Positions 20,394 through 53,129 of a stretch of 64,000 bases of DNA are shown piece by piece. A program made the translations under genes and the position numbers. How positions within the stretch are numbered: the first letter of the stretch is position 1; each line of letters starts with the position of its first letter. A model generated the notes under the pieces. The model saw only the letters and a program-made list of their open reading frames with translations. It had not been told where the DNA came from and searched no databases. This stretch comes from an uncultured Gammaproteobacteria bacterium. GTDB lineage: Bacteria; Pseudomonadota; Gammaproteobacteria; CAWCPV01. The stretch lies in assembly GCA_963797555.1 (NCBI GenBank), contig CAWCPV010000007.1, positions 512,001-576,000 of the forward strand. Direction: 5' to 3'.

Positions 20394-20608
20394 CTCGACA
20401 CCTCCATGAAGCGGGTTATAGGACGAACGCCATCTTATCCGTCCAGCGCCTCCGCGGTGAGCTTTAAGTAGACCGACCGCAGGTCCGGAGGCGGACGTTT
20501 CGATTCGCCCGGGCCGAGGCAATAGCCTTGGCCCCGGCGCGCGGTGCCGTGTATCCTTGGCCCATCCTCAGGGGAAAACCGCGCGAAGACGCGGCTCGAA
20601 CAGGGAGC

Positions 20609-23285
20609 ATGGACGACTCGGCACCCCGCTATGATTTGTTCCTGAGCTACCACTGGCGCGACCGCCAAGCGGTCGAGTCGGTCGCGAAGGCGCTCACGGC
20701 GCGGGGGCTCAAGGTCTTCCTGGATCGCTGGTACCTCCCCGCCGGCCAGCCCTGGCCGCTCGCGCTCGAACAAGCGCTCGGCACCTGCCGCGCGGCGGCG
20801 GTGTTCCTCGGGCCGAACGGCGTGGGGAGCTGGCAGCAGCGGGAGAAGTGGCTCGCGCTCGACCGCCAGGCGCGGGAGCCGGGCTTTCCCGTGATCCCGG
20901 TGCTGCTGCCGCGCGCGGAGCAGCCAGCCCTGGAGTTCCTCTCCCTCAACACCTGGGTGGACCTGCGTGCCGCGCTGGACGATGCCGAGGCCCTGGACGT
21001 GCTCGTGCACGCCGCGCGCGGCGAGGCGCCGGGACCTACCCTGTCGGTGCGCCTGAGCGCCACGCTCGCGAGCATCGCCCCCTACCGCGGCCTCGGCGTG
21101 TTCCGCGAGGAGGACGCCCCCTTCTTTTTCGGCCGCGACGAGTTCATCGATCAACAGCTCCGGCCTACCGTCGAGGGGTGCTCGCTGGTCGCGGTGGTGG
21201 GGGCCTCGGGCAGCGGCAAGTCCTCGGTGGTCCGAGCGGGATTGCTGCCGCGGCTGCGCCGCGGCGAGGGCGGCAAGGTGTGGGAGATCGCGACCCTGCT
21301 CCCCGGCGACCGGCCGCTGCACGCGCTGGCCGCCGCCCTGCTGCCCTTGTTGGAGCCGGAGCGGGCCGAGCTGACCGAGACCGACCGGCTCGCCGAAGTG
21401 GGCAAGCTCGCCGGGCACCTCGCCGCGGGCACGGTGGCGCTGCGCGACGTGGTGGGTCGGGTGCTGGAGAAGCAGCTCGGGACCGAGCGCCTGCTGCTGG
21501 TCGCCGATCAGTGGGAGGAGCTTTACACGCTCACTCGGGAAAGCTCGGCTGCGCAGCGCTTCATCGAGGAGGTGCTGGACGCCACCGCCACCGCGCCGCT
21601 CACCGTGGTGCTGACCTTGCGCGGCGATTTCTTCGGCGAGGTGCTGGCGCACCGCGGGCTCGCCGATCGGCTGCAGGGCGGGGTCGTCAACCTGGGACCC
21701 ATGAATCGGGAGGAGATCGCGCAAGTGGTGGTGCGGCCGGCCGAGAAGGTCGGGCTCGCCTTCGAGCCGGGGCTGCCCGAGCGCATCCTGGACGAAGTCG
21801 GCGAGGAGCCGGGCCACCTGCCGCTGCTGGAGTTCGTGCTGACGGGGCTATGGCAGGACCGCCAAGCCGGCCGGCTGCTGCACGAGGCATACGATGCCAT
21901 GGGCGGCGTGCAGGGGGCGATGGCGCAGCGCGCGGAGGAGGTCTGGAAAAAGCTAGGTGAGCGTGAGGAGACCACGCTGCACCATCTCTTCCTGCAACTG
22001 GTCAGCGCCGGTGCGGGGACCGCGGACACGCGCCGACGTGCGGTACTCGCCGACCTTGCGCCCGCCGTGCGACCGGTGGTGGCGAAGCTCGCCCGCGAGC
22101 GGCTGCTGGTGATCGGGCGCGACGAGGCGAGCGGCGAGGAGACGGTGGAGGTCGCCCACGAGGCGTTGATCCGTCACTGGGATCGGTTGGGGAAATGGCT
22201 CGACGAGGACCGCGAGTTTCTGCTCTGGCGCCAGCGCCTGGAGGTAGCGCTCGCCCAGTGGAAACGTGCCGGCCGCAAGGACTCCGGCACCCTGCTGCGC
22301 GGGGCCCCGCTGGCCGAGGCCGAACGCTGGCTGGGGGAGCGTGGGGACGACCTGACCGAGGAGCAGCGCGCCTACGTGCGCGCGAGCCTCGCGGCGAGGG
22401 ACCGCCGCCGCTGGCTCACGGGAAGCGCGGCGGCGCTGGTCTTGCTCGCCTCTCTAGCGGTCGCCACCTGGCAGTATGGCGTGGCTGAGCGGCTGCGGCG
22501 TGAGCGGGCGCCGATCCCGCCCGCGATGGTCCTGATCGAGCCCCGCCCCTTCATGATGGGCTCCCCCGAGGGTGACAAGGAGGCACATCCCGATGAGTGG
22601 CCCGCCCACGACGTGGTGATCGCCAAGCCGTTCAAGATCGGCAAGTACGAGGTAACCTTCGAGGAATACGACCGCTTCGCGCTCGCCACCGGCCGTCGCC
22701 CGCCCAGCGACCAGGGCTGGGGCAGCGGCCAGCGCCCGGTGATCAATGTCTCCTGGGACGACGCCGTCGCCTATGCCCAGTGGCTGTCGAAAAAAAACCG
22801 GCCAGCGCTTTCGGCTGCCCACCGAGGCGGAGTGGGAGTATGCCGAGCGGGCGGGCAGCGTCACCGCACGCTTCTGGGGCGACGATCCGAAGCAGGCGTG
22901 CCGCTACGCGAACGTCTATGACAAGACGGGCGAGGCCGGAGGCAAGGAGAAATACGCGATCACCTGGGAGGCGCACGACTGCGAGGATGGCTTCGTCGAG
23001 ACCGCGCCGGTAGGTCGCTTTCAGCCCAACGCCTTAGTACTGTACGACATGCTGGGGAACGTCTGGGAGTGGGTGCAGGACTGCTGGCACGAGAGCTACC
23101 GTGACGATCCGCCGCGGGACGGCTCGGCCTGGCTGGAGGCTGATGGCGGCGATTGCGGTCGGCGCGTGGTCCGCGGCGGCTCCTGGAACTACGGACCGAG
23201 GGACGTGCGCTCGGCGGTGCGTGACAGGATACCGGCCGACTACCGGACCAACTACCTCGGTTTCCGCCTCGCCCAGGACTTGTAG
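20609..23285 (+). CDS. TIR-nSTAND1 NTPase-TM-FGE-sulfatase (CLec-fold) receptor, DGR target; frameshift in A8 run 22790-22797
   Basis: TIR (YDLFLSY, WQQRE); PYRGLGVF..FFGRD, GASGSGKSS, DQWEELY, LTLRGDF, LPLLEF, EVAHEALIRHW; TM helix; EVTFEEY, PVINVSWDDA, RLPTEAEWEY, DMLGNVWEW, RGGSW...GFRLAQDL. Confidence 0.9.
23165..23285 (+). other. Putative DGR variable region (VR)
   Basis: RGGSWNYGPRDVRSAVRDRIPADYRTNYLGFRLA with many NNC codons (TAC, GAC, GCC, ACC, AAC) at positions that are AAC in CLec-type template repeats. Confidence 0.7.
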
Positions 23286-23357: not shown

Positions 23358-23632
23358 GTGAAGGACCTCACCCCCCACGCCGTGCAGTCCTGCCACGAGC
23401 TGCTGCTGTGGCTGCTGCCGCTGTTGGACAAGCTGCCTCGGGTACGGCGCTTCACGCTCGGGGAGCGCATCGAGAGCGCGCATCCTGGATGTGCTGGAGG
23501 CGCTCGTGGAGGCCGGCTACAGCGCCGGCGGGGCAAAGCGGACGGCGCTCAAACGGGCGAACCTGAGGCTGGAAGTGACGCGCCACCTCTGGCGCCTGTG
23601 CCACGAATCCCAGCTCGTATCCGCGCGGCGCT
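23358..23632 (+). pseudogene. avd: DGR accessory variability determinant Avd, frameshifted (~23478) and 3'-truncated
   Basis: AVQSCHELLLWLLPLLDKLPRVRRFTLGERIES / ILDVLEALVEAGYS..ANLRLEVTRHLWRLCHE..VSARR; the final helix ending GRQIGGW is missing. Confidence 0.82.
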
Positions 23633-23857
23633 CTTCCCCCACCGACGGCGCGGCGTCATCGAATCTCAACTCCCCCCGGACCACGACGGTGGGCGAAGGC
23701 GCGCTCGGGCACCTATATACTACGTAGCAAGGACGCCCTCCGGGCCGGTTCGCGGCCGAAACTACCGGCTCGAAAACGTAGCGCAGCCTGGGCAGCGCCC
23801 GCGCGAGGCCCCAACGCAGCGAGGCCACCCAGACAGGTCTGCAACAAGGAGAAACGC

Positions 23858-25192
23858 ATGAACCGCCCCCTTTGCTTCGTCCTCATGCCCTTCGGCAAGA
23901 AGCCGGATGCCGGGGGCTCGGTGGTCGACTTCGACGCCGTCTACCGGGAGCTGATCGCCCCGGCCATTGAGGAGGCCGGGTTGGAGCCCCTGCGCGCCGA
24001 CGAGGAGATGACCGGCGGCATCATCCACAAGCCGATGTTCGAGCGCCTGATCCTCTGCGAGTATGCGGTGGCCGACCTCACCACGGCCAACGCCAATGTG
24101 TTCTACGAGCTGGGCGTGCGCCATGCGGTGCGCCCGTTCAGCACGGTCCCGCTATTCGCCGCAGGCGGCAGCCGCTTGCCCTTCGATGTGGCACCGCTGC
24201 GGGCGATGCCTTACCGGCTGACCCCCGAGGGCAAGCCTGCGGAAGTGGAGGCCGACAAGAAGGCATTGGTGGAACGTCTCGAAGCGGCCGAGCAAGAGGC
24301 CGCTACCGACAGCCCCGTGTACCAGCTCGTCGAGGGGTTCCCGGACGTCGACCACGCCAAGACCAACGTCTTCCGCGACCAAGTGCGATACGCGGCCGAG
24401 ACCAAGCAACGGCTCGCGGCGGCCCGCAAGCAGGGGGCCGAGGCGGTGCGGGCGGTGGAGCGGGAGCTCCGGGACATCCGTAACCAAGAGGCCGGCGTGG
24501 TGATCGACCTTTTCCTGTCCTACCGCGCCGTCAATGCCTGGGAGGACATGATCGCCCTGGTGCCGAAGATGTCTCCGGCACTCGCTCCCACCGCCATGGT
24601 GCAGGAGCAGCTCGCGCTCGCACTCAACCGTGCGGGGCGCGGGGAAGAGGCCGAGCGAGTGCTCCTCGACCTTATCCAGAGGCGCGGGCCGAGCAGCGAG
24701 ACCTACGGCATCCTGGGGCGGGTATACAAGGACCGCTGGGAGGCCGCAGCCAAGGCCGGTGATCGCTTCCTCGCCCGCGGGCTGCTGGACAGAGCGGTCG
24801 AGGCGTACCTCAAGGGCTTCGAGGCCGACTGGCGCGACGCCTATCCCGGCATCAACGCCGTCACCCTGATGGAGCTGAAGGACCCGCCCGACCCGCGGCG
24901 CGGGGCGCTCCTACCGGTGGTCTCCTACGCCGTGGAGCGGCGCATCGCCGCCGGCAAGCCCGACTACTGGGACCACGCCACCCGCCTGGAGCTGGCGGTG
25001 CTGGCCAGGGAGGAGCAGAAGGCGAAGGCAGCGCTCTCCGACGCGCTCCCTGCGGTGCGCGAGCCCTGGGAGCCCGAGACCACCGCGCGCAACCTGCGTC
25101 TGATTCGAGAGGCCAGGGAGGGGCGGGGGGAAGAGGTGCCGTGGGCGAGGGAGATCGAACGGGAGTTGGAGCGGCGATCGCAGCGGCGCTAG
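23858..25192 (+). CDS. Nucleoside deoxyribosyltransferase-like domain + TPR-S (DUF4071/MAP3K TRAFs-binding) protein
   Basis: CFVLMPFG, LRADEE, VADLTTANANVFYELGVRHA; EQLALALNRAG, SETYGILGRVYKDRW, YPGINAVTL, DYWDHAT, WEPETTARNL. Confidence 0.85.
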   Translation: MNRPLCFVLMPFGKKPDAGGSVVDFDAVYRELIAPAIEEAGLEPLRADEEMTGGIIHKPMFERLILCEYAVADLTTANANVFYELGVRHAVRPFSTVPLFAAGGSRLPFDVAPLRAMPYRLTPEGKPAEVEADKKALVERLEAAEQEAATDSPVYQLVEGFPDVDHAKTNVFRDQVRYAAETKQRLAAARKQGAEAVRAVERELRDIRNQEAGVVIDLFLSYRAVNAWEDMIALVPKMSPALAPTAMVQEQLALALNRAGRGEEAERVLLDLIQRRGPSSETYGILGRVYKDRWEAAAKAGDRFLARGLLDRAVEAYLKGFEADWRDAYPGINAVTLMELKDPPDPRRGALLPVVSYAVERRIAAGKPDYWDHATRLELAVLAREEQKAKAALSDALPAVREPWEPETTARNLRLIREAREGRGEEVPWAREIERELERRSQRR

Positions 25193-25460: not shown

Positions 25461-26111
25461 ATGCGGATCAAGAACGCATGTTTCATCAGCTATTGCCACG
25501 GTCAGAATGAGCTGATCAAGGGTTTCATCGAGCAGCTCTGTAGAGCACTCAAGAACTACCTGGAGCCGCTGATGGACGAGGGGGTATATGTCGATTACGA
25601 GCGGCTTCAGCCCGGTTACCGATTCAACGAAGCCCTGGCCAGAGATATTTGCGAGAGCGTTTGCATGATCGTGGTCTACTACCCCAGATACGAGCAGCAC
25701 TCGTATTGCCGGCGCGAGTTCGCGGCCATGGAGATCATGGAGGAGCACCGCAAGGCCCTACTGGGTGCCCACCTACATGGACGTGGCTTCATTATTCCGG
25801 TGATTCTCACTACCGGCGCTGACGGAGTCCCCGACAAGATCAAAGGTGCCCTCCACTACTCCGATTTCTCTGGGTGGACCCTTGCCAGCAGCGATATTAG
25901 CCGTAACCCGGACTTCATACCGGCCATTAAGGACATCTGCACAGCTATCCACGAGCTCTACGAGCTGCTGCGGCAGAAGATTGCCGCCGGAAATCAGCAT
26001 ATGGACTGCGTCGACTTCCGGGTTCCCGCTGAAGCCGACGCGCCGCCTTGGCAACACGGGGGGACAGTGCCTGGCCCATTGCCCTTTCCCGGCCGGAAGT
26101 CCGCCCCGTGA
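25461..26111 (+). CDS. Standalone TIR-domain protein (FxsC-like)
   Basis: CFISYCH, VYVDYERLQPG, YYPRY..SYCRREF (catalytic Glu), IIPVIL. Confidence 0.82.
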   Translation: MRIKNACFISYCHGQNELIKGFIEQLCRALKNYLEPLMDEGVYVDYERLQPGYRFNEALARDICESVCMIVVYYPRYEQHSYCRREFAAMEIMEEHRKALLGAHLHGRGFIIPVILTTGADGVPDKIKGALHYSDFSGWTLASSDISRNPDFIPAIKDICTAIHELYELLRQKIAAGNQHMDCVDFRVPAEADAPPWQHGGTVPGPLPFPGRKSAP

Positions 26112-28912
26112 AGCCAGCCATCGCGGGCGAGGTAATCACCTTCTATTCCTACAAGGGTGGTACGGGCCGCTCCATGGCGCTGGCCAATATCGCTTGCCTG
26201 CTTGCTGCCTCGAGTGCAGACGGCCGTGAGGTGCTTATAGTGGACTGGGATTTGGAGGCGCCAGGCCAGCACTGGTTCTTCCTCCGCTCGCAGCTTCCTG
26301 GGGCGAACGACGGATGGCGTGCGGCCGGGAGTGACGAGCGACCAGGGTTGATGGAACTGCTTGAGATGCTAGAACGCAAGGTGCCGAAGACCGATGCGGA
26401 GTCGGTCGTCGAGGCTGAAGCGCAGGCCGAGAAGCTATTTGAAGGCCTGTCGCTCGAAACCTACGTCACTCCGACGGCCTTTCCCAAAGTCCATTTGCTC
26501 AAGGCCGGACGGCTCGACTCGGGCTATCCAGAACGGGTCAACACCTTCGCCTGGGAGGGCCTCTACCGGCGTGCGCCGTACCTTTACCAGACCTTAGCCA
26601 GGCACCTTGCGGCGCGGTACCGCTACGTCATCATCGACGCGCGCACCGGGCTTGCGGACATGAGCGGGATATGCACGACCCTCATGCCGGAAAAGCTGGT
26701 CGTGGTGTTTACCCCTAATCGACAAAGCCTGACCGGTATGTCGGAGGTAATCAAGCGAGCTACCACGTACCGTCGCCGTTCCGACGACCTGCGGCCCCTG
26801 CTCGTCTACCCTCTGCCATCGCGCATCGATTCAGAGCGGGACGAGTTGCGCAAGCGTTGGCGGTATGGGGACTCCACGCATGGAGTCGACGGTTACCAGC
26901 CACTCTTCGAGCGGCTGTTCCAGAACGTCTACGGGCTGAAGCAATGCGACCTGGGGGCCTATTTCGATGAGGTGCAGATCCAGCACAGCCCCGATTACGC
27001 CTATGGTGAAGAGATCGCCGTCAACGTGGAGACGAGCGAGGACCGCTTTTCCCTCGTTAGGAGCTACAAGGCGTTGCTGGAATGGCTGGCCAACTCCTAC
27101 GCGCCTTGGGAAGGTCTGGAGCAGGCACGCGCGATCCGCGACCTCGGCGTACTGGAGGTGAAGGAGCGCGAGTTGCGGGCTCGGGCCGGGGCGGACGCCG
27201 AGGCGAGGCGCGAGCTAGCGTCGTTGCGAGAGGAAATCTTCACCCGCAAGGCAAAGTTAAAGGGCGAGCAGGATCCCGATACCCTGGCGGCAATGGACCG
27301 GCTGGCCCGAACCGTCTGGGAGCAAGGTGACTGGAACGCAGCGCGACGGCTGCAGGAGCAGGCGATCGAGGCCCGCCGCCGGGTGCTGGGCGAGGAGCAC
27401 CCCGACACCCTGACCAGCATGGGCAACCTGGCCGCGACGCTCCGGGCCCAGGGCGACCTCCCCGGCGCCCGCGCCCTTCAGGAAAAGGTCCTGGAGGTCA
27501 GCCGCCGGGTGCTGGGCGAGGAGCACCCCGACACCCTGACCAGCATGGGCAACCTGGCCGCGACGCTCCGGGCCCAGGGCGACCTCCCCGGCGCCCGCGC
27601 CCTTCAGGAAAAGGTCCTGGAGGTCAGCCGCCGGGTGCTGGGCGAGGAGCACCCCGACACCCTGACCAGCATGGGCAACCTGGCCGCGACGCTCCGGGCC
27701 CAGGGCGACCTCCCCGGCGCCCGCGCCCTTCAGGAAAAGGTCCTGGAGGTCAGCCGCCGGGTGCTGGGCGAGGACCACCCGGACACCCTGAGGAGCATGG
27801 GCAACCTGGCCGCGACGCTCCGGGCCCAGGGCGACCTCCCCGGCGCCCGCGCCCTTCAGGAAAAGGTCCTGGAGGTCCGCCGCCGGGTGCTGGGCGAGGA
27901 CCACCCAAACACCCTGACCAGCATGGGCAACCTGGCCTGGACGCTCCGGGCCCAGGGCGACCTCCCCGGCGCCCGCGCCCTTCAGGAAAAGGTCCTGGAG
28001 GTCCGCCGCCGGGTGCTGGGCGAGGACCACCCAAACACCCTGACCAGCATGGGCAACCTGGCCTGGACGCTCCGGGCCCAGGGCGACCTCCCCGGCGCCC
28101 GCGCCCTTCAGGAAAAGGTCCTGGAGGTCAGCCGCCGGGTGCTGGGCGAGGACCACCCGGACACCCTGACCAGCATGAACAACCTGGCCGGGACGCTCTG
28201 GGCCCAGGGCGACCTCCCCGGCGCCCGCACCCTTCAGGAAAAGGTCCTGGAGGTCCGCCGCCGGGTGCTGGGCGAGGACCACCCGGACACCCTGACCAGC
28301 ATGAACAACCTGGCCGGGACGCTCTGGGACCGGGGCGACCTCGCCGACGCCCGCGCCCTTGAGGAAAAGGTTCTCGAGGTCCGCCGCCGGGTGCTGGGCG
28401 AAGACCACCCAAACACCCTGACCAGCATGGGCAACCTGGCTGGCACGCTTGGGGCCCAGGGCGACCTCCCCGGCGCCCGCGCCCTTCAGGAAAAGGTCCT
28501 GGAGGTCCGCCGCCGGGTGCTGGGCGAGGACCACCCAAACACCCTGACCAGCATGGGCAACCTGGCCTGGACGCTCCGGGCCCAGGGCGACCTCCCCGGC
28601 GCCCGCGCCCTTCAGGAAAAGGTCCTGGAGGTCCGCCGCCGGGTGCTGGGCGAGGACCACCCAAACACCCTGACCAGCATGGGCAACCTGGCCTGGACGC
28701 TCCGGGCCCAGGGCGACCTCCCCGGCGCCCGCGCCCTTCAGGAAAAGGTCCTGGAGGTCCGCCGCCGCCTGCTCGGCCCTGAGCACCCCGACACACTTCG
28801 GGCAATGGCCCAGCTCGCCGAAACACTCGATAAGTCGGACGACAAGGCTGCCCTCGCCGCGCTGCAGAAAGAGATCATTGCCTCAGTACAGCGTTTGCAG
28901 AAAACGCCCTAG
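26108..28912 (+). CDS. ParA/MinD-like (KGGxGR-variant) ATPase fused to a 42-aa TPR array (FxsT-like)
   Basis: TFYSYKGGTGRSMALAN, VDWDLEAPG, IIDARTGLAD, FTPNRQSL; GTG start overlaps the TIR stop (GTGA). Confidence 0.85.
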   Translation: MKPAIAGEVITFYSYKGGTGRSMALANIACLLAASSADGREVLIVDWDLEAPGQHWFFLRSQLPGANDGWRAAGSDERPGLMELLEMLERKVPKTDAESVVEAEAQAEKLFEGLSLETYVTPTAFPKVHLLKAGRLDSGYPERVNTFAWEGLYRRAPYLYQTLARHLAARYRYVIIDARTGLADMSGICTTLMPEKLVVVFTPNRQSLTGMSEVIKRATTYRRRSDDLRPLLVYPLPSRIDSERDELRKRWRYGDSTHGVDGYQPLFERLFQNVYGLKQCDLGAYFDEVQIQHSPDYAYGEEIAVNVETSEDRFSLVRSYKALLEWLANSYAPWEGLEQARAIRDLGVLEVKERELRARAGADAEARRELASLREEIFTRKAKLKGEQDPDTLAAMDRLARTVWEQGDWNAARRLQEQAIEARRRVLGEEHPDTLTSMGNLAATLRAQGDLPGARALQEKVLEVSRRVLGEEHPDTLTSMGNLAATLRAQGDLPGARALQEKVLEVSRRVLGEEHPDTLTSMGNLAATLRAQGDLPGARALQEKVLEVSRRVLGEDHPDTLRSMGNLAATLRAQGDLPGARALQEKVLEVRRRVLGEDHPNTLTSMGNLAWTLRAQGDLPGARALQEKVLEVRRRVLGEDHPNTLTSMGNLAWTLRAQGDLPGARALQEKVLEVSRRVLGEDHPDTLTSMNNLAGTLWAQGDLPGARTLQEKVLEVRRRVLGEDHPDTLTSMNNLAGTLWDRGDLADARALEEKVLEVRRRVLGEDHPNTLTSMGNLAGTLGAQGDLPGARALQEKVLEVRRRVLGEDHPNTLTSMGNLAWTLRAQGDLPGARALQEKVLEVRRRVLGEDHPNTLTSMGNLAWTLRAQGDLPGARALQEKVLEVRRRLLGPEHPDTLRAMAQLAETLDKSDDKAALAALQKEIIASVQRLQKTP
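27374..28759 (+). repeat. 11 tandem 126-bp near-identical repeats encoding kinesin-light-chain-type TPRs
   Basis: Unit (R/S)RRVLGE(D/E)HP(D/N)TL(T/R)SM(G/N)NLA(A/W/G)TL(R/W/G)AQGDLPGARALQEKVLEV; 11 x 126 = 1386 bp. Confidence 0.97.
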
Positions 28913-29302: not shown

Positions 29303-29359
29303 CGCGGACTCTTGGCTGTGCATGCAGCGCGGGCCGCCGTTGGATCGAAGCCGACGGTC

Positions 29360-29803
29360 TCAGGGAGCCAGCAACCGATGCTTGACGCTGAGGGAAGCGG
29401 CCGATCGGGCCAGCAGTACATCGCAGGTCACCAGCACGGCGCCCAGCGCATGTGCACAGGCGAGGTGCAGTGCATCCAGGGTGCGCAACGGTGTCATCCG
29501 GGCGAGCAGCCAGCGCTCTGCCTGCCGATAATGGCGTGCATCGAGCGCAACGACCCGAAAGCAGCCGCTCTCCAAATCCTCGCGGTAGGCGGATTCGACT
29601 TCTGCGGCCTGAGCGGGGGTCAATTCACCCATTCGCACCCATCGGGCCAGTGCCGAGGCAAGCTCGATCTGGGTCAGGAGGGTCAGCAGCGCCGGGCGGG
29701 TCAACGACATCAACAGCGCCTGCACAGCATCACTCACGGCCTCCTCACGGTAGTAAGGCAGCAGCGCGCTGGTGTCCAGGTACAGCTCCTCAGTAGCGCT
29801 CAT
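29360..29803 (-). CDS. vapC: VapC PIN-domain toxin
   Basis: LYLDTSALL, IELASAL, LRTLDALHLA, LVTCD. Confidence 0.9.
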   Translation of the reverse strand: MSATEELYLDTSALLPYYREEAVSDAVQALLMSLTRPALLTLLTQIELASALARWVRMGELTPAQAAEVESAYREDLESGCFRVVALDARHYRQAERWLLARMTPLRTLDALHLACAHALGAVLVTCDVLLARSAASLSVKHRLLAP

Positions 29804-30032
29804 CCTCTCTCAGACCGCGTACGATCTCGGCGCTGGTGATCTGGCTGACAGGTAGCCGCTGGCGGAACGCCCGCCGGTCCGGAAAGCACACGCCCTGCGG
29901 CTGTGGAGCGATAGCCACCAGGCGTGCTATCGCTTTGCCGCGGCGCTCGATGACGACCTCCTCGCCAGCCTCGACGGCATCCAGAAGCCGGCCTATCTGG
30001 GCCCGCAGTTCGCGGATATTGACTACGTGCAT
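29790..30032 (-). CDS. Phd/YefM-family antitoxin
   Basis: VNIRELRAQIGRLLDAVEAGEEVVIERRGKAIARLV; overlaps vapC. Confidence 0.9.
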   Translation of the reverse strand: MHVVNIRELRAQIGRLLDAVEAGEEVVIERRGKAIARLVAIAPQPQGVCFPDRRAFRQRLPVSQITSAEIVRGLREDERY

Positions 30033-30047
30033 CGTGTCCTCCCCGGA

Positions 30048-30069
30048 ATGTACACCGAGCAGTGTACAT
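30048..30069. promoter_or_regulatory. Probable toxin-antitoxin operator
   Basis: Perfect inverted repeat ATGTACAC-N6-GTGTACAT immediately upstream of the antitoxin. Confidence 0.65.
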
Positions 30070-30245
30070 GCACTAACGGCGGATTGCCGGGGGCCGACGA
30101 CAGCGTTCTGGCAAAAGCTTGCGGCGGCAAGGGGTTGCCGCCCTAAAGGCTCCGCGGAGTCATGTCTCGTCGATCTGAGGGCCTCGCCAGCGCGATGCTT
30201 GCGACGTGTACCGACTTACGGACTCGATGCCGCAGCTACCAGGAC

Positions 30246-30418
30246 GAGCAGAAGGCGATACCGGCGCTCGCGGACGCGCTGGCCGCGGTGCGGAGCCCTG
30301 GGAGCCCGAGACCACCGCGCGCAACCTGCGGCCCATCCGAGAGGCCAGGGAGGGGCGGAGGGACGACGTACCGTGGGCGAGGGAGATCGAGGGGGAGTTG
30401 GAGCAACGGGCACGGTAA
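30246..30418 (+). repeat. Diverged orphan copy of the 3' end of the DUF4071/TPR-S gene (25013-25192)
   Basis: 38-bp exact block 30293-30330 = 25061-25098; encodes PWEPETTARNLRPIREAREGRRDDVPWAREIEGELEQRAR*. Confidence 0.88.
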
Positions 30419-30632
30419 TAACTAAGTCTTTGCGGCTGGCACATCGCTGAAAGGATGCTGCGTTACTCGACGTACGCCGGCAAGAAACACGATACTGCGG
30501 ACTTCAGCACGGCTCGATTATCATAAACGGTGCGCCCTCGGCTTTTTGTGTGAGTCCAACTGCGAAGGGTCCGCAGAGGCTCTTGCAGGCCAGCCATGTC
30601 AAAATCACTGCTCCGTAGGTGGGGTTACGTGC

Positions 30633-33600
30633 GTGCAGCACCCTGATCACTTCGAGTGGGACGTGTTCCTGAGCTACAGCCATGCGGACAAGCCGCGAGT
30701 TCTCCGTCTGGCCGAAAGGTTGCGCGATGCCGGGTTGCACGTTTGGCTGGATGACTGGGTAGTCCGGCCCGGCGATGACTTCAATCTTGCAATACAAGAG
30801 GGGCTTCAGCGCTCCCGGCGGCAGGTGTTCTGCATTTCGAAAGAATCGGTCGAATCTGACTGGGCCCGCGCTGAGCAGAATAGCGTTCTTTTCCGGGACC
30901 CTCTCAACCGCGAGCGCCGGTTCATACCGTTCTTTTGGAAGACTGCGGCATACCCGATTTCGTCGGGCGCTTCCATCGTGTCGACCTCCGCTCGGAAACC
31001 GAAGAGGCATGCCGCCAGCCCATCGACGCCTGCTCACCGGCACATTACGGGACCATGGCCGCAAACGCGCCAGGTACCGCGACTCGGGAGGAGCTTGACG
31101 TCCTTCGCGACAGGTTCGCCCATGCATCGCAGGACCTCCTCCGCTGGCCCGCATCTCTCCCCGGAGGCACATGGTTGGAGCGGCCGGAGCTGGACGATAT
31201 CCTGCGCTCGATCGAAACCACACGATCCTCCTTGACCCTTCTGCTCGGTGAACCAGGGGGCGGCAAGTCGGCCCTGTTGGCCCGCCTTGGTGCGCTTCTC
31301 CAGGAGCGCGCTATAGCCCTGCTGGCGATCAAGGCTGACTTCCTGCCCAGCAACGTCCTGACGCTCTCGGATCTGTCGACCTATCTGCAGTTTCCCGTCA
31401 CGGTGGACCGGGCATTCCCACTGCTCGCAGCCCAAGGGCCCGTGGTGCTCCTCGTCGATCAGCTCGATGCCTTGGCCGACATGGTGGTGCAGCATGCAGA
31501 GCGCCTGAAGCCCCTGCTCGAACTCATCGAGACTCTCGCTGAGATCGATACCGTCCATATCGTGGCATCGTGCCGTACCTTTGAGCACCGCCACGATCCA
31601 CGCCTGCGGAGCCTTGCTGCGGAGCCCCTGCAACTCTCCCTCCCTGGCTGGGAATCTGTGGCGTCCACATTGCGCCATTGGGGTATCGAAGCAGGAGCCT
31701 GGAGCGCTTCGATCCGCGAAGAACTCCGTAGTCCTCACGTATTGGCGCTGTTCCTCGACTTGCTGAAAGACAGGCACGAAGCGCACGTGCTCTCTTGCTA
31801 CCAGGCGATGCTGGATACCCTCTGGCAGCAACGGGTGCTGCACGACACGACCGGGGCACGACGCCAACTGCTATTCGACATGGCGGAACAGATGGCCGAA
31901 CGAGAGACGCTATGGTTGCCGTTGGCGATGTACGAGGACCGGCGGGAGACGGTTCACGCGCTGGCGCGCGATGGAATCCTCACCACGGACGACGCGGGTC
32001 TGCGCGTCGGCTTCCGACACCAGACCCTATTCGAATTCGTGCGCGCTCGCAGTTTTCTCGAGGAGTCGGGTCGGCTTACCAATGCCGTCGTCGCCCGGCA
32101 AACCAGCCTGCGCGTTCGTCCGCAACTGTGGCATGCCCTGGGCTATCTGCGCGCAGCCGATCGCAGCACGTATCTTGGGGAGATCGAACTCCTTTGGCAC
32201 GCCGATCTGCGTGCCCATTTGCGCGCGCTCGTCATCGAGTTCCTGGGGCGGATGCACGATCCCGAGCAGCGCGAAGCTCATCTGCTACTCGCGAGCTTCG
32301 ATGACCCTTGGCACAGGCGTCGGATCTTGTCCGCCGTTGTCGGTAGCCCCGGCTGGTTTCGGTTGCTGATGCCCGGTCACTTGCCGATGCTGATGTCCGG
32401 AACTGCTGAGGAAGCGTCGCAGGCACTCCCAGTTCTGCAAGCGGCTCTCGTCTTCGCCCGCGACGATGTACTTGAGCTGGCGGATTCCCATTGGATGGCT
32501 CACATGGAACGGGACGTGGTGATATGGCGCCTGCTGGAAGAGGTACCGCAGTGGGACAATGCGGTGGTGGACCGGTTCTGCCGCGTTCTCGGCCGGACGG
32601 AGATCGCCGCGTGGGCCGTGAACGCACTCGCGAGCAAGGTGAGCGCGGCACTGCCCAACGAGGCGCCTCGACTTGTCGCCGCATGGCTGCATCGCCAGCT
32701 CAGATCTATTGCGACCAATGCCTCTGCCACAACATCAAACCGCGATGCCGACCCCACCGAGACCGCGGCGGGAGATATCAGCCAGATGGACCCGCACGCG
32801 GGCTACCGCAAACTAGTCGGCGAGCAGCGACTGCACGACCTGCCCGCGGTCGCCGAGGCTGCCCCGTGGTCGTTCCTCAATGCTGTCTGGCCATGGTTCC
32901 TCACGGTGCTGCAGCAAGCGGCCGAAGAACCGCACCCGTTCGTTATCGGGTACCGCGACGACCACGGTTTGGTTACGGACTGGGAGAACGACGCAGACCT
33001 CGAGCGCGAGCACCCACTTCTCAAAGCGCTGGAGATCGCAGTGGACGGAGTCGCGGCGCGAGAACCCCGCGCCTTCCTCGAGTTCGTCGAGACCCATCGC
33101 CGGCACGACTTGCTTATGCTTCTGGTACAGCGCCTGCTGGCCCGCGGAATGTTGCAGCTCGTCGATGCGTGGCCTAACGAGGTGCTTGAGTTTCTCACCG
33201 AGGATCCGCGGCGGTTTGCGCTGGAACCGTCGGCCAATGAGCACGCCGATTCACAGCGGTTGATAAGGGCCGTCGTTCCTCGCCTGGACGCGAGCGGCCG
33301 CCGGCGGCTGGAAGAGGCCCTTATTCGTTGGAGCCACTATACTCGTCATCCGGAGGACGAACCCGACGTTCGTTTACGCCGCCTGCGATGGAGCCGCGAG
33401 CACCGGCTCCGGCTGCTGCGCGCATTCCCGAGGGAGTACATGAGCGAGGATTGCCGCCAACTCCTCGATGCGGAAACGCGGGCTTTCCCCGACTTGAGTG
33501 ACCGAGATACGTGGTTTTCCGGCGTACGCGTGGTCGGTAGCCCAATGAGTCCAGAGCAGATGGCAAATGCAAAGGACGAGCACATTCTGAATCTCTTCGA

Positions 33601-35069
33601 AGAGCTTACCGATGACCATGGCTGGGACCACCCACAAAGCTGGGGCCGGGGTGGTCCGATACAGGCGGGGCGAGCTGGCATCGAAAGACCCGGAGCGAGG
33701 CGTCCGGATTGCTCGACTGCTACGACCAGTCCGAAACGAGTATCCGGTAAGCCAAGTGTTGGAAGGCTTGGTGAAGGGCGGCTACGCTCCCGAATCACTC
33801 TACACTTTGATCTTAGAACTTAGCCAGCGTGGATTCACAGGCGATGCATTCAGGCACGCCGCGGCTCGCGCCATAGCAACGGTCGTCTCCAGCGCACAAC
33901 CGTTGCCCGACGAGGTATTCCAACTGCTTGAGGGTTGGTTGGTCCCTGCGGATCGGATTTCTCGAGAGCGCTCGGAGGATCGGGATGATGTGAGAGAGAG
34001 GACAGCATTCTTTGGGGATATGCACGGATGCGGGTCCTGCCGCACGGAAACTATCCGATCCTGCAGGCGCTCTCGGAGGCTTGCCTCGTTGCCCAACCCA
34101 CTCAAGCGGTCCGTTGGCGCACTTTGTTGGAACGGCATCTGGGGCACGACGAAGATATTGAAGTGTGGGCGGCTATGGGGACCTATCTACAGTGGCTGCA
34201 TTTCGCGGACCGTAACCGAGCCGAAGATTTCATGCAGCGCCTGTGGGGCCGCTATCCTGAGCTTCTCGAACGAGTCGAGGGTATCCATCTCTTAGCCCAT
34301 GCACAGCACTGGGTGGGAGCAGAGCGGCTACGCCTGGCTAGAGACCACGCGCGGCAGGGGATCTCGCCTTGCCTGTCAGGGCTACGGTGAAGTCGCCATG
34401 CTGCGGCACGGCTTGTTCCCGCGCGAACAGTGGGCAACGGAGCGGGTCCGATCCATCGTGTACGGTGCGGCCTCCGATACATGCGTTCGAGCGGCTCGCG
34501 TCGGGGTGGCGCATAGTGCTGCCGCGCTGTGGAAGGAGGCTGAGTACCGTCCAGTGGCTCACCCGACCGTGGTCGCGCTGATCGCCGACAAGGATCCTGG
34601 CGTACTCAAAGCGCTAAGGGCCATATTTCGGGTCAAGGCCCTATTCCCAGACGACATGACTCGCGAGCTTTTGGATGCCATCTCCGCCAACCCGGCCATT
34701 CTTGGTCAGAACGACACAGAATTTCTGCTCGGACACCTCGAAGGACTAGTTGTAGGGGAGCCCGAGCGCGTCCACCGCGTGTGCCTCGCACTGCTCGACC
34801 GTTTCGGCGAACAGTTCGCCAGTCCCCATTCCCGGGCGTATCTCGATGGGGATATCTTGATTTCGATCGCCCTACGACTGCTAGAGCTGGGGCCATCGCA
34901 GCAGGAGCACGGCACCGAGCTATTCGAGCGGATGATGGAGCTCAACTTGCCGGGGATTACCGGAGTGCTGGTCGACCTCGACAAGCGGATGCCCAATACA
35001 CCGGCTTATGGACGCAATAGACCTCGGAGGCGCAGGAGACGGCAGGCAGACCGCGCTGACAACGGATAG
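30633..35069 (+). CDS. Large TIR-STAND/NACHT-like NTPase with long helical C-terminus (Avs-like), split by about 4 frameshifts
   Basis: TIR WDVFLSYSHAD..WARAE; GEPGGGKS Walker A; VLLVDQLDAL Walker B; IVASCR; FRHQTLFEF; contiguous ORFs join near 30935, 33670, 34010 and 34320. Confidence 0.75.
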
Positions 35070-51787: not shown

Positions 51788-51979
51788 GTGGTGCCAAGAA
51801 GGGAGTTGGTGGTCATCAAGCCTGAGTCGGTGGCTAAGAAACTCGGCGCACGAGCGTTCACGGGCGTAGACTGCGGTGGCACTCGCGATGCCGCCGCCCC
51901 AGGGTGCACCCTCGACGGCGGCAGGTGGAGGTGGTTTCACGATGTCCGCCGGCTTGGCCCGTCCTGTCGGTGCGCATGA
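51788..51979 (+). pseudogene. ndk: Highly degraded nucleoside-diphosphate kinase remnant
   Basis: RELVVIKPESVAKKLG resembles Ndk RTLSIIKPDAVAKN.IG; [10 protein letters not shown] resembles GATNP..AAPGT; sits at the usual ndk position before rlmN. Confidence 0.55.
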
Positions 51980-52013
51980 TCCCGCCAGACATGGCATCGG
52001 TTCTCCAAGTCTG

Positions 52014-53129
52014 ATGCATTCTTCTCCTGCTGACATCCATTCTCGGCCCGCCAGGGTCAATCTCCTGGGATTGGACCGAGCGGCCCTAGCGGGCTTTTTC
52101 GCGCAGAACGGCGAGAAGCCGTTCCGCACCGACCAGGTCATGAAATGGGTCCACCAGTTGGGCGTCGCGGACTTCGCTGCGATGACGAATCTCAGCAAGG
52201 ACCTGCGCGTCCGCCTGCATGAGGTGGCCGAGGTGCGAGCGCCCGAACTGGTGACAGAAGATGCGGGGCAGGACGGCACGCTGAAGTGGCTGCTTCGCCT
52301 CGACGGCGGCAACTGCATCGAGACGGTGTTCATTCCGGAAGCCGGGCGCAACACCCTTTGCGTCTCATCCCAAGTGGGATGTGCCCTGGAATGCGCGTTC
52401 TGCGCCACGGGAAGCCAGGGCTTCAACCGCAACTTGACTAGCGCCGAGATCATCGGCCAGCTTTGGCTCGCACGCCGGATGCTGCGCGCGCGTGACCCGC
52501 GTCTGGGCATCAGTAACCTGGTGCTGATGGGCATGGGCGAGCCGCTGTTGAACTTCCACAACGTGGTGGCAGCATTGCGTTTGATGCTGGAAGACCTGGC
52601 CTACGGCCTGTCCTGGCGCCGCGTTACGCTGAGTACGGCTGGCGTCGTGCCGGCCATCGACCGCTTGGCGGAAGCCTGCCCGGTGAACCTCGCGGTCTCG
52701 CTTCACGCGCCCGACGACGCGCTGCGCAGCGAGCTGGTCCCATTGAACAGGAAGTATCCTTTGGGCGCGTTGCTGGATGCATGCCGCCGCTACGCAAGAC
52801 AGGATCGGCGGTGCAGGATAACGTTCGAATACGTGTTACTCGACGGAGTCAACGATTCACCCACCCAAGCGCGCTCGCTGGTCCGCCTGCTCCAGGACAT
52901 CCCCGCGAAGGTCAATTTGATTCCGTTCAACTCTTTCCCTGGAACGCGATTCCAATGCTCGGGGGCGGAGGCCATCGAGCGCTTTCGGGGGGTTCTCATG
53001 GCTGCGGGCCTGGTCACGGTCACGCGCAGGACGCGAGGTTCGGATATCGCTGCGGCATGCGGGCAACTGGCGGGCCAAGTGGCCGACCGTACCAAGCGCC
53101 GCCTCGGGCGCGGGGATCTGGTGCATTGA
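52014..53129 (+). CDS. rlmN: Dual-specificity RNA methyltransferase (radical SAM)
   Basis: [37 protein letters not shown]. Confidence 0.96.

Follow-up and report, generated by a model that had tools for sequence, protein, structure and literature searches.

The window analysed here, a stretch of 64,000 nucleotides from an uncultured gammaproteobacterium (assembly GCA_963797555.1, contig CAWCPV010000007.1, positions 512,001 to 576,000), contains on its forward strand two overlapping genes, which encode a stand-alone TIR protein and a ParA/MinD-fold nucleoside triphosphatase (NTPase) that is fused to an array of tetratricopeptide repeats (TPRs). This locus is one copy of the TIR-ParA class (ParA clade ConB2), a predicted immune or programmed-death cassette, and the class as such has already been described computationally as TIR-ParA "apoptosis systems" (Li, Burroughs & Aravind, bioRxiv 10.64898/2026.10.19.760177, 22 Oct 2026; hereafter the preprint). 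The parts of the gene pair are the following:

25461-26111, + strand: TIR gene, 216 amino acids (open reading frame, ORF, and Pfam TIR_2)
26108-27127, + strand: ParA/MinD-fold NTPase domain, 340 amino acids (GTG start, NF047398, match to a MinD profile, structural model)
27128-27268, + strand: charged, helix-rich linker between the ParA domain and the TPRs, about 47 residues (sequence; no NTPase family there)
27269-28912, + strand: TPR_10/TPR_12 array, presumed sensor (Pfam and Tandem Repeats Finder, TRF; eleven units of 42 amino acids at 27368-28767)

The two proteins and their predicted contact

The stop codon of the TIR gene (TGA, 26109-26111) and the GTG at 26108 share a GTGA overlap of four bases (...CCC CGT GAA GCC...), and in our reading the second gene is translationally coupled to the first. 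The longest open reading of the ParA-TPR frame extends from a TTG at 26048 to the stop at 28912. Among the 150 best relatives the ParA domain mostly begins at about residue 5-10, in a few of them as late as about residue 27. As the position of the domain counted from the GTG at 26108 fits these relatives, this start codon, and with it the four-base overlap, is the better reading, and residues of the ParA-TPR protein are numbered from it. For the stretch itself no RNA run is listed, and the only runs listed are four soil-metagenome DNA runs of one study, with a word share of at most 0.24.

The Walker A motif of the ParA domain, KGGTGR (residues 16-21; 26153-26170), carries Arg at the position of the usual second Lys. 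It is accompanied by further motifs typical of ParA proteins, namely DWDLEAPG (residues 46-53, comprising the sensor-1 DxD and a following PG), the Walker B motif IIDARTG (D177) and FTPNRQS (residues 201-207). Across 40 aligned relatives K16, G17, G18, G20, R21, D48, P52, G53, D177, P203 and N204 are invariant, and K16, G17, G18, G20 and R21 were also unchanged in a set of 58 aligned relatives. The NCBIfam model NF047398 ("KGGVGR-motif variant AAA ATPase") matches the domain with 121.7 bits against a cut-off of 90, and the Pfam families AAA_31, CbiA and ParA match it below their cut-offs. For a profile built from the 40 relatives, the top match among solved sequences was archaeal MinD (1g3q; E 1.1e-6), with the Walker A and Walker B regions aligned. 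The AlphaFold model of residues 1-340 reached a mean predicted local distance difference test score (pLDDT) of 87.2 and a predicted template modelling score of 0.89. Its Foldseek matches in the PDB, considered to rank 50, were ParA, MinD, Soj, McdA, FlhG, BcsQ, CooC, NifH/BchL and one CapAB kinase chimera, with E-values down to 4e-9 and TM-scores of up to 0.74 on the target length and 0.45-0.59 on the query length. The ESM Atlas returned only clusters of the ParA/MinD family for this domain.

No NB-ARC, NACHT or nSTAND domain was found in the ParA-TPR protein by Pfam (E ≤ 0.1), and no STAND protein occurred among the Foldseek matches of the ParA model to rank 50. A hidden STAND domain can be ruled out, as no such Pfam family matches, the entire 340 amino acids fold as ParA/MinD and the linker comprises only about 47 residues. 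The initial reading of this locus, which was made from the letters alone (hereafter the sequence-only reading), had described the GTGA overlap, the KGGTGR motif with its Arg and a short linker to the TPRs without NB-ARC or NACHT motifs. All three descriptions hold, and the conventional STAND domain that this reading had named in advance as evidence against itself is absent from both searches. Like P-loops in which Lys was mutated to Arg, for example that of RecA K72R, the P-loop with Arg21 probably still binds ATP and hydrolyses it slowly.

The TIR protein is matched by Pfam TIR_2 over residues 8-139 (E 1.1e-10; 42.5 bits, cut-off 28), and the TIR fold spans approximately residues 1-175 of its 216 amino acids. 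Its candidate catalytic residue, Glu86 (codon 25716-25718), is unchanged in 24 of 24 aligned homologues. In a profile alignment it pairs with the second E of the "CLEEL" motif of Roq1, which we take to be the catalytic Glu of plant TIRs. Judged by this alignment the catalytic glutamate is intact, and enzyme activity is predicted. The AlphaFold model (pLDDT 85.8) was matched by Foldseek to the TIR domains of SPARTA TIR-APAZ, RPS4, RUN1, MyD88, BtpA, AbTir and SARM1. Homologues of this size, about 200-230 amino acids, numbered 170 at E ≤ 1e-3 among 270 candidates. Behind the fold follows a conserved C-terminal tail (C183..F186..P189..W197..FPGR), for which the motif Cxx[F/Y]x[hydrophobic]P...W was found in 113 and 104 of the 120 TIRs recognised by a core regular expression (38 others were left unscored).

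The prediction of a complex between the TIR protein and the ParA domain, an analysis that the sequence-only reading had suggested, gave a median score of 0.75 (runs 0.75, 0.62 and 0.75), while the best of three controls scored 0.02. In the calibration this mark was attained by 58 of the 80 solved complexes and by 2 of the 110 mismatched pairs, figures which apply only roughly here, as own alignments were used. The runs share at least 87% of their contacts, and the pLDDT of the partner was at least 77. The predicted interface involves residues 99-103, 150-158, 184-192 (just after Walker B), 217-232 and 274-278 of the ParA domain, and residues 16-22, 74-80, 116-122, 137-151 and the tail residues 205-211 of the TIR protein. 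To our knowledge there is no solved TIR-ParA complex. The prediction supports a docking of the TIR protein on the ParA domain.

Conservation of the pair and variability of its presumed sensor

The gene pair is tightly conserved in both directions across many bacterial phyla and some archaea. This was assessed in two sets of loci. The first (L001-L080) comprises the best 80 of 100 relatives of the TIR protein (111 pattern matches; one genome per species), with hosts from Gamma- and Betaproteobacteria (mostly Oxalobacteraceae), Acidobacteriota, Desulfobacterota, Binatia, Ignavibacteria and Chitinophagales as well as two archaeal metagenome-assembled genomes (MAGs). The second (L111-L190) comprises the best 80 of at least 591 relatives of the ParA domain (at least 600 pattern matches) in metagenomes. 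In the first set a ParA domain lies directly downstream of the TIR gene in 79 of 80 loci (tblastn). The exception is L001 (6816-9638), where the TIR gene is followed by a gene for a protein of 940 amino acids with nSTAND1 and FGE-sulfatase domains and an N-terminus of 235 amino acids without assignment, and no ParA domain is present. In the second set, a hidden Markov model of the TIR family found a TIR ORF on the same strand upstream of the ParA gene in 77 of 80 loci. In 74 of these 77 it lies within 130 nt of the start of the ParA domain, and in L156, L189 and L190 at a distance of 534-690 nt. The contigs of L146 and L180 hold no sequence upstream of the ParA domain, and in L171 the overlapping upstream ORF of 268 amino acids is a weak TIR_2 match (E 0.0014). 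The census of such operons that the sequence-only reading had called for therefore finds the pair in nearly all loci, whichever of the two proteins is used for selecting them.

The spacing of the two genes is narrow as well. From the TIR stop codon to the "IITFYS" motif of the ParA domain there are 13-176 nt, and at most 60 nt in 91 of the 102 loci in which both regular-expression motifs were found. In Oxalobacteraceae the TIR gene ends with an in-frame TAA and the ATG of the ParA gene follows 9 nt later, which is an ordinary gene junction. A fusion of TIR and ParA in a single frame occurs in only 1 of the 157 loci with both domains (L188, 394-2163). Apparent fusions in L017, L071, L072 and L074 proved to be artefacts, in which the tblastn match ran past a stop codon, and were rejected by a stop-to-stop test.

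The pairwise distances of TIR and ParA sequences are correlated (103 pairs after dereplication at 85%; Mantel r = 0.79, with none of 999 permutations as high), and the maximum-likelihood trees of both proteins have 40 of 100 splits in common, compared to 0.25 on average and 3 at most for permuted labels. Much of this agreement could arise from common descent by itself; it speaks for co-inheritance of the two genes, not for their interaction.

The ParA domain belongs to a much wider family, with 7,803 representatives of clusters at 50% identity matching it at E ≤ 1e-3 and, at E ≤ 1e-30, at least 1,502 of them. The domain is always N-terminal in the 150 best relatives, and the total length of the proteins varies from 380 to 1,584 amino acids. 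A Pfam scan covered 58 of these 150, which lie outside an alignment of relatives (A2) and are mostly longer members. It found AAA_31 in 54 proteins, TPR_12 in 21, TIR_2 in 16, nSTAND1 in 13, PASTA in 9 and WD40 in 4. A further 120 relatives add FGE-sulfatase, NACHT, NB-ARC, cyclase, GGDEF, kinase, CHAT and TPR-S domains. The C-terminal sensor region is thus variable among relatives. About ten of these 120 are plain ParA-TPR proteins, so that the architecture found in the window recurs.

Among 146 paired ParA domains the P-loop reads KGGxGR[ST] in 131 and KWGTGRT in 2, and it is degenerate in 13. DWDLEAPG is present in 100 of the 146, with near variants in most others. The decayed P-loops belong to L051, L053, L054, L059, L062, L066, L069, L071-L074, L182 and L184 (examples are RGGAGCT, RDDGSRS, QDGCGRS and ESGTARS), and most of the other motifs are kept in these proteins.

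Within the phylum of the window, NF047398 scored above its cut-off in 42 of 401 sampled genomes, and the window's own genome has one match. The top NF047398 loci of this phylum (L081-L110) were considered as evidence on the subfamily and set aside, as they belong mostly to other subfamilies and 27 of the 30 are only weak matches to the profile of the ParA domain in the window. An A1-type TIR was found beside none of these 30 loci within the 1.5 kb examined.

The presumed sensor of the ParA-TPR protein is an array of nearly identical repeats. Pfam assigns TPR_10 (651 bits in 12 stretches) and TPR_12 (564 bits) to this region, and TRF reports a period of 126 nt with 11.1 copies and 95% matches (27368-28767); for repeats of this kind, copy numbers taken from metagenome assemblies are uncertain. 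The eleven units of 126 nt have a mean pairwise nucleotide identity of 94.4%, and the pairwise codon differences among them comprise 246 nonsynonymous and 91 synonymous ones. These differences concentrate at unit positions 3, 10, 13, 19, 23 and 26. On either side of the "NLA" of TPR helix A lie the two positions with the most variation, which probably face the binding groove. Similar repeat arrays occur in the ParA genes of L007, L012 (99%), L171, L133 and L183. L012 (10066-10618) is an archaeal TIR-ParA locus from a Methanobacteriota MAG, whose 126-nt repeats are 99% identical and cut off by the end of the contig.

Neighbouring genes, proposed mechanism and alternatives

One gene upstream of the pair could be an accessory component:

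23858-25192, + strand: possible accessory TPR-S/MAP3K_TRAF_bd gene, 444 amino acids, 268 nt upstream of the TIR gene

Its product is matched by Pfam MAP3K_TRAF_bd (E 1.3e-50) and TPR-S (E 9.5e-28). In L011 and L014 the gene next after the ParA gene encodes a homologue of this TPR-S protein (69-70% identical), further homologues occur with 49% identity in L189 and L190, and in the relative P0326 both PF13281 and PF20308 lie within the ParA protein. The TPR-S protein is hence an occasional, not a constant, partner of the pair.

Several other genes of the window lie around the cassette. A gene for a TIR_2-nSTAND1-FGE-sulfatase protein (20528-23285, + strand) has its FGE domain split across two frames, with profile positions 3-110 in ORF 20528-22921 and 110-254 in ORF 22746-23285, which suggests a frameshift or an assembly error. 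The nSTAND1-FGE gene that follows the TIR gene in L001 resembles it. The possibility that the TIR domain of this neighbour belongs to the family of the partner TIR was rejected, as the hhalign probability was only 3%. An ORF of 167 amino acids (23358-23861, + strand) overlaps the start of the TPR-S gene. It shows a weak similarity to four-helix-bundle proteins of the bAvd type (NCBIfam Avd, E 3.4e-4; ESM Atlas score 0.86), which is to be taken as a lead only. Downstream, 30935-33823 (+ strand) encodes a protein of 962 amino acids with sub-threshold STAND/NACHT matches and a match to the PADLOC candidate PDC-M54A (E 9.3e-17), which resembles nucleotide-binding leucine-rich repeat receptors (NLRs). 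The overlapping ORFs 29312-29839 and 29836-30450 (+ strand), which directly follow the ParA-TPR gene, had no family match in Pfam, NCBIfam or PADLOC, and they are possibly not genuine genes. Neither these two ORFs nor the upstream one of 167 amino acids had relatives in the 190 loci, and they are therefore not conserved parts of the cassette.

The following mechanism appears rather probable for the pair. The TPR array would recognise a ligand derived from an invader or from stress, and binding of this ligand would alter how the ParA domain, depending on its nucleotide, forms dimers or multimers; Lys16, the signature residue of sandwich dimers, is kept in this domain. Through this change, TIR subunits bound to the domain would be gathered into an active assembly or set free to form one. 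In this state the TIR would consume nicotinamide adenine dinucleotide (NAD+), and the infected cell would stop growing or die. That TPR ligand binding might gate the dimerisation of ParA and the activation of the TIR enzyme had already been put forward in the sequence-only reading, and ligand sensing, dimerisation, NAD+ depletion and a role against phages are likewise what we infer for this locus.

A number of observations weigh against this mechanism or against an immune function of the pair. No bench experiment on any TIR-ParA member was found in the literature searched, and the text of the preprint reports none. PADLOC names no system for the pair; its sole match is the candidate PDC-M28B, on the ParA domain (E 4.1e-16, profile positions 129-318 of 438), with no PDC-M28A match in either protein; a published description of PDC-M28 was not found in the literature search. 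The predicted contact surfaces are not better conserved than the rest of the proteins, with values of 0.57 versus 0.54 elsewhere for the ParA domain (1570 of 5000 random subsets as high) and 0.47 versus 0.47 for the TIR protein (2103 of 5000). The TIR protein of L001 retains the conserved tail though no ParA gene comes after it, so that a role of the tail besides ParA is possible and the tail may serve another purpose. The 13 paired ParA domains with a degenerate glycine-rich loop (of 146) keep their TIR partner, for which reason nucleotide binding is perhaps not needed everywhere and may be dispensable in some members. In addition, nSTAND1 is also present in 13 of the 58 scanned relatives. 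The view of the sequence-only reading that a ParA switch is used instead of a STAND domain thus holds for this gene, which has none, and does not extend to those relatives: where a STAND NTPase coexists with it, the ParA domain presumably does something that a STAND switch does not. Finally, the Oxalobacteraceae pair is syntenic, as the genes that flank the pair in L016 are shared by 54-59 of the other 64 loci (L017-L080). Such synteny is less typical of mobile defence genes, and in this family the pair has been inherited vertically. The syntenic loci (L016-L080) are spread across species of Duganella, Massilia, Rugamonas and Pseudoduganella.

The last point can also be read in favour of a function other than phage defence. 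The pair could be a module for regulated self-killing or signalling in development, kin discrimination or stress, which is kept vertically as part of the core in some lineages. Its presence in dozens of Oxalobacteraceae species with largely common flanking genes would fit this, as would the lack of any named defence system recognised by PADLOC and the enrichment of TIR-ParA systems in multicellular bacteria that the preprint's text reports (10.64898/2026.10.19.760177). Outside this family, however, the distribution is patchy, as the 42 of 401 genomes with NF047398 above its cut-off illustrate. The neighbours in the window are NLR-like conflict genes (TIR-nSTAND1-FGE, TPR-S and the STAND-like protein of 962 amino acids), sensor domains are freely swapped and the repeats vary nonsynonymously. 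All of these features are typical of immune genes, and a purely non-defensive function appears improbable. A different question is what the TIR enzyme produces. Instead of depleting NAD+ it could, like Thoeris or plant TIRs, make a signal derived from ADP-ribose, for which the ParA domain with its Arg P-loop would be the receptor, and ParA multimers or an unlinked protein would then act as effector. The Lys-to-Arg exchange, which is invariant and kept even in most of the degenerate loops (...RS/RT), hints at a non-standard role in ligand binding, and the TIR model is equally close to signal-making plant TIRs and to NAD+-depleting TIRs. Yet no SLOG, SIR2, Macro or other known receptor or effector gene is conserved beside the pair, where only TIR and ParA recur. 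The sensor-1 DxD, the Walker B Asp and the Asn of a degenerate NKxD are kept as for ordinary binding of Mg-ATP, and PADLOC gave no match to Thoeris. A signalling TIR is quite unlikely here.

It might also be the ParA domain itself that acts on the cell, by forming multimers on DNA or another structure upon triggering and thus blocking replication or division, with the TIR protein as an accessory amplifier or scaffold. The preprint's text argues for such a role in other ConB2/ConB1 systems and points to conserved DNA-binding surfaces in immune ParA proteins (10.64898/2026.10.19.760177), a MinD/ParA-like domain is listed among effector domains in the text of Kaur et al. 2020 (PMC7159879), and in STAND-bearing relatives the ParA domain occupies the N-terminal "effector" position. 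However, a TIR protein that is almost never missing and whose Glu is kept in all aligned homologues fits an enzyme, not a scaffold, and this explanation is very unlikely. Returning to the ParA switch that controls a TIR NADase, a more detailed version can be formulated, which taken as a whole is unlikely, too. In it the TIR protein would be held on the ParA domain through the predicted surface, to which the FPG(R) tail of the TIR protein contributes, the nucleotide state of an ATP-latched ParA dimer that hydrolyses slowly would directly determine the TIR assembly, the varying TPRs would form a sensor that can be re-programmed quickly, the TPR-S protein would be recruited as a third component in some lineages and, in Oxalobacteraceae, the pair would be a vertically kept "core" death switch and not mobile defence. 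The docking surface, the TPR variability, the recruitment of TPR-S and the core switch are all absent from the text of the preprint.

Comparison with known systems

With STAND and NLR-like proteins such as the neighbouring TIR-nSTAND1-FGE protein (20528-22921), the pair shares the logic of effector, NTPase switch and repeat sensor, including repeats of the TPR_10/TPR_12 type. It differs from them in that the NTPase has the SIMIBI ParA/MinD fold and not the AAA+ fold of STAND and that the effector is a separate polypeptide. To MinD, Soj and ParA it is similar in fold, in the signature Lys of the deviant Walker A motif, in the sensor-1 DxD and in the Walker B Asp. The Arg in the P-loop, about 90 inserted residues, the lack of a ParB, MinE or MinC partner, the fusion to TPRs and the pairing with TIR set it apart from these proteins. 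Thoeris (ThsB and ThsA) likewise has a short operon with a small TIR gene that stands alone, but a ThsA-type effector with SIR2/SLOG or Macro domains is lacking here, and NCBIfam gave only a trace of 12 bits. Assignment to Thoeris or another named defence system was therefore rejected (PADLOC, NCBIfam; no ThsA-type neighbour).

A likeness also exists to the FxsC/FxsT pairs (NF040588 and NF040586) of the actinobacterial FxSxx-COOH peptide system. They, too, combine a TIR protein with a second protein that begins with an Arg-P-loop ParA domain and carries TPRs at its C-terminus. The TIR protein of the window is, however, short (216 amino acids), lacks the FxsC-C domain and reaches only 40.8 bits with FxsC_Nterm (NF040588; cut-off 130). 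The ParA-TPR protein matches FxsT (NF040586) through its TPR part only (profile positions 433-739 of 830) and has neither an NB-ARC nor an inner TIR domain. No FxsB radical SAM/SPASM enzyme was found near the pair, and the sole radical SAM protein in the 64-kb window is RlmN (51876-53129), 23 kb away. With FxsC_Nterm below its cut-off, an incomplete FxsT architecture and no FxsB in the window, membership in the Fxs group was rejected. The comparison with Fxs pairs drawn in the sequence-only reading was apt nonetheless, and its statement that the radical SAM enzyme is absent is borne out (an FxsA-type peptide was not searched for).

The best agreement is with the TIR-ParA class itself. According to the text of the preprint (10.64898/2026.10.19.760177), the hallmarks of this class are an upstream gene for a conventional, active TIR, a ParA domain fused to variable sensors, an Arg in place of the second Lys in Walker A and a PG after the sensor-1 DxD. 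The signature Lys of KGGTGR, the DWD and the IIDARTG place the window's protein in the ParA clade of SIMIBI NTPases (K16, D48 and D177 are invariant), and R21, P52 and G53, which correspond to the Arg P-loop and the PG, are invariant in the 40 relatives, too. An upstream TIR gene is present in 79 of 80 and 77 of 80 loci, with the putatively catalytic E86 invariant. The sensor is a TPR array here and consists of TPR, TIR_2 plus PASTA, nSTAND1, FGE, NACHT, WD40 or other domains in relatives. The preprint's text also counts FxsC/FxsT as one actinobacterial example of TIR-ParA and already proposes a STAND-like ParA switch for an NAD+-degrading TIR. The suggestion in the sequence-only reading that this is an uncharacterised system has therefore to be given up, and the window locus in itself is no discovery. 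The term "TIR-ParA" was found only in this preprint, two chance matches aside, and an "inactive MinD/ParA-like domain" in related systems was mentioned earlier in the text of Kaur et al. 2020 (PMC7159879).

As sensors of TIR-ParA systems the text of the preprint names STAND modules, ligand-binding domains and receptor-like domains of the PASTA type, and it mentions TPRs for TA-ParA, not for TIR-ParA. A ParA domain joined directly to TPRs, with neither STAND nor a second TIR, as in the window, is not named in this text for TIR-ParA, and may be included in its Figure 5G or supplements. The docking surface, the repeat variability, the linkage to TPR-S and the synteny in Oxalobacteraceae come from the present analysis and go beyond the preprint's text. 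TIR-ParA is a very large family, in which a SIMIBI switch of the ParA/MinD type appears to do the job of the STAND NTPase in NLR-type immunity, and a member as small as this one, with two genes and a plain TPR array as sensor, lends itself as a minimal model for the use of ATP by an Arg P-loop, the control of a TIR NADase and protection against phages.

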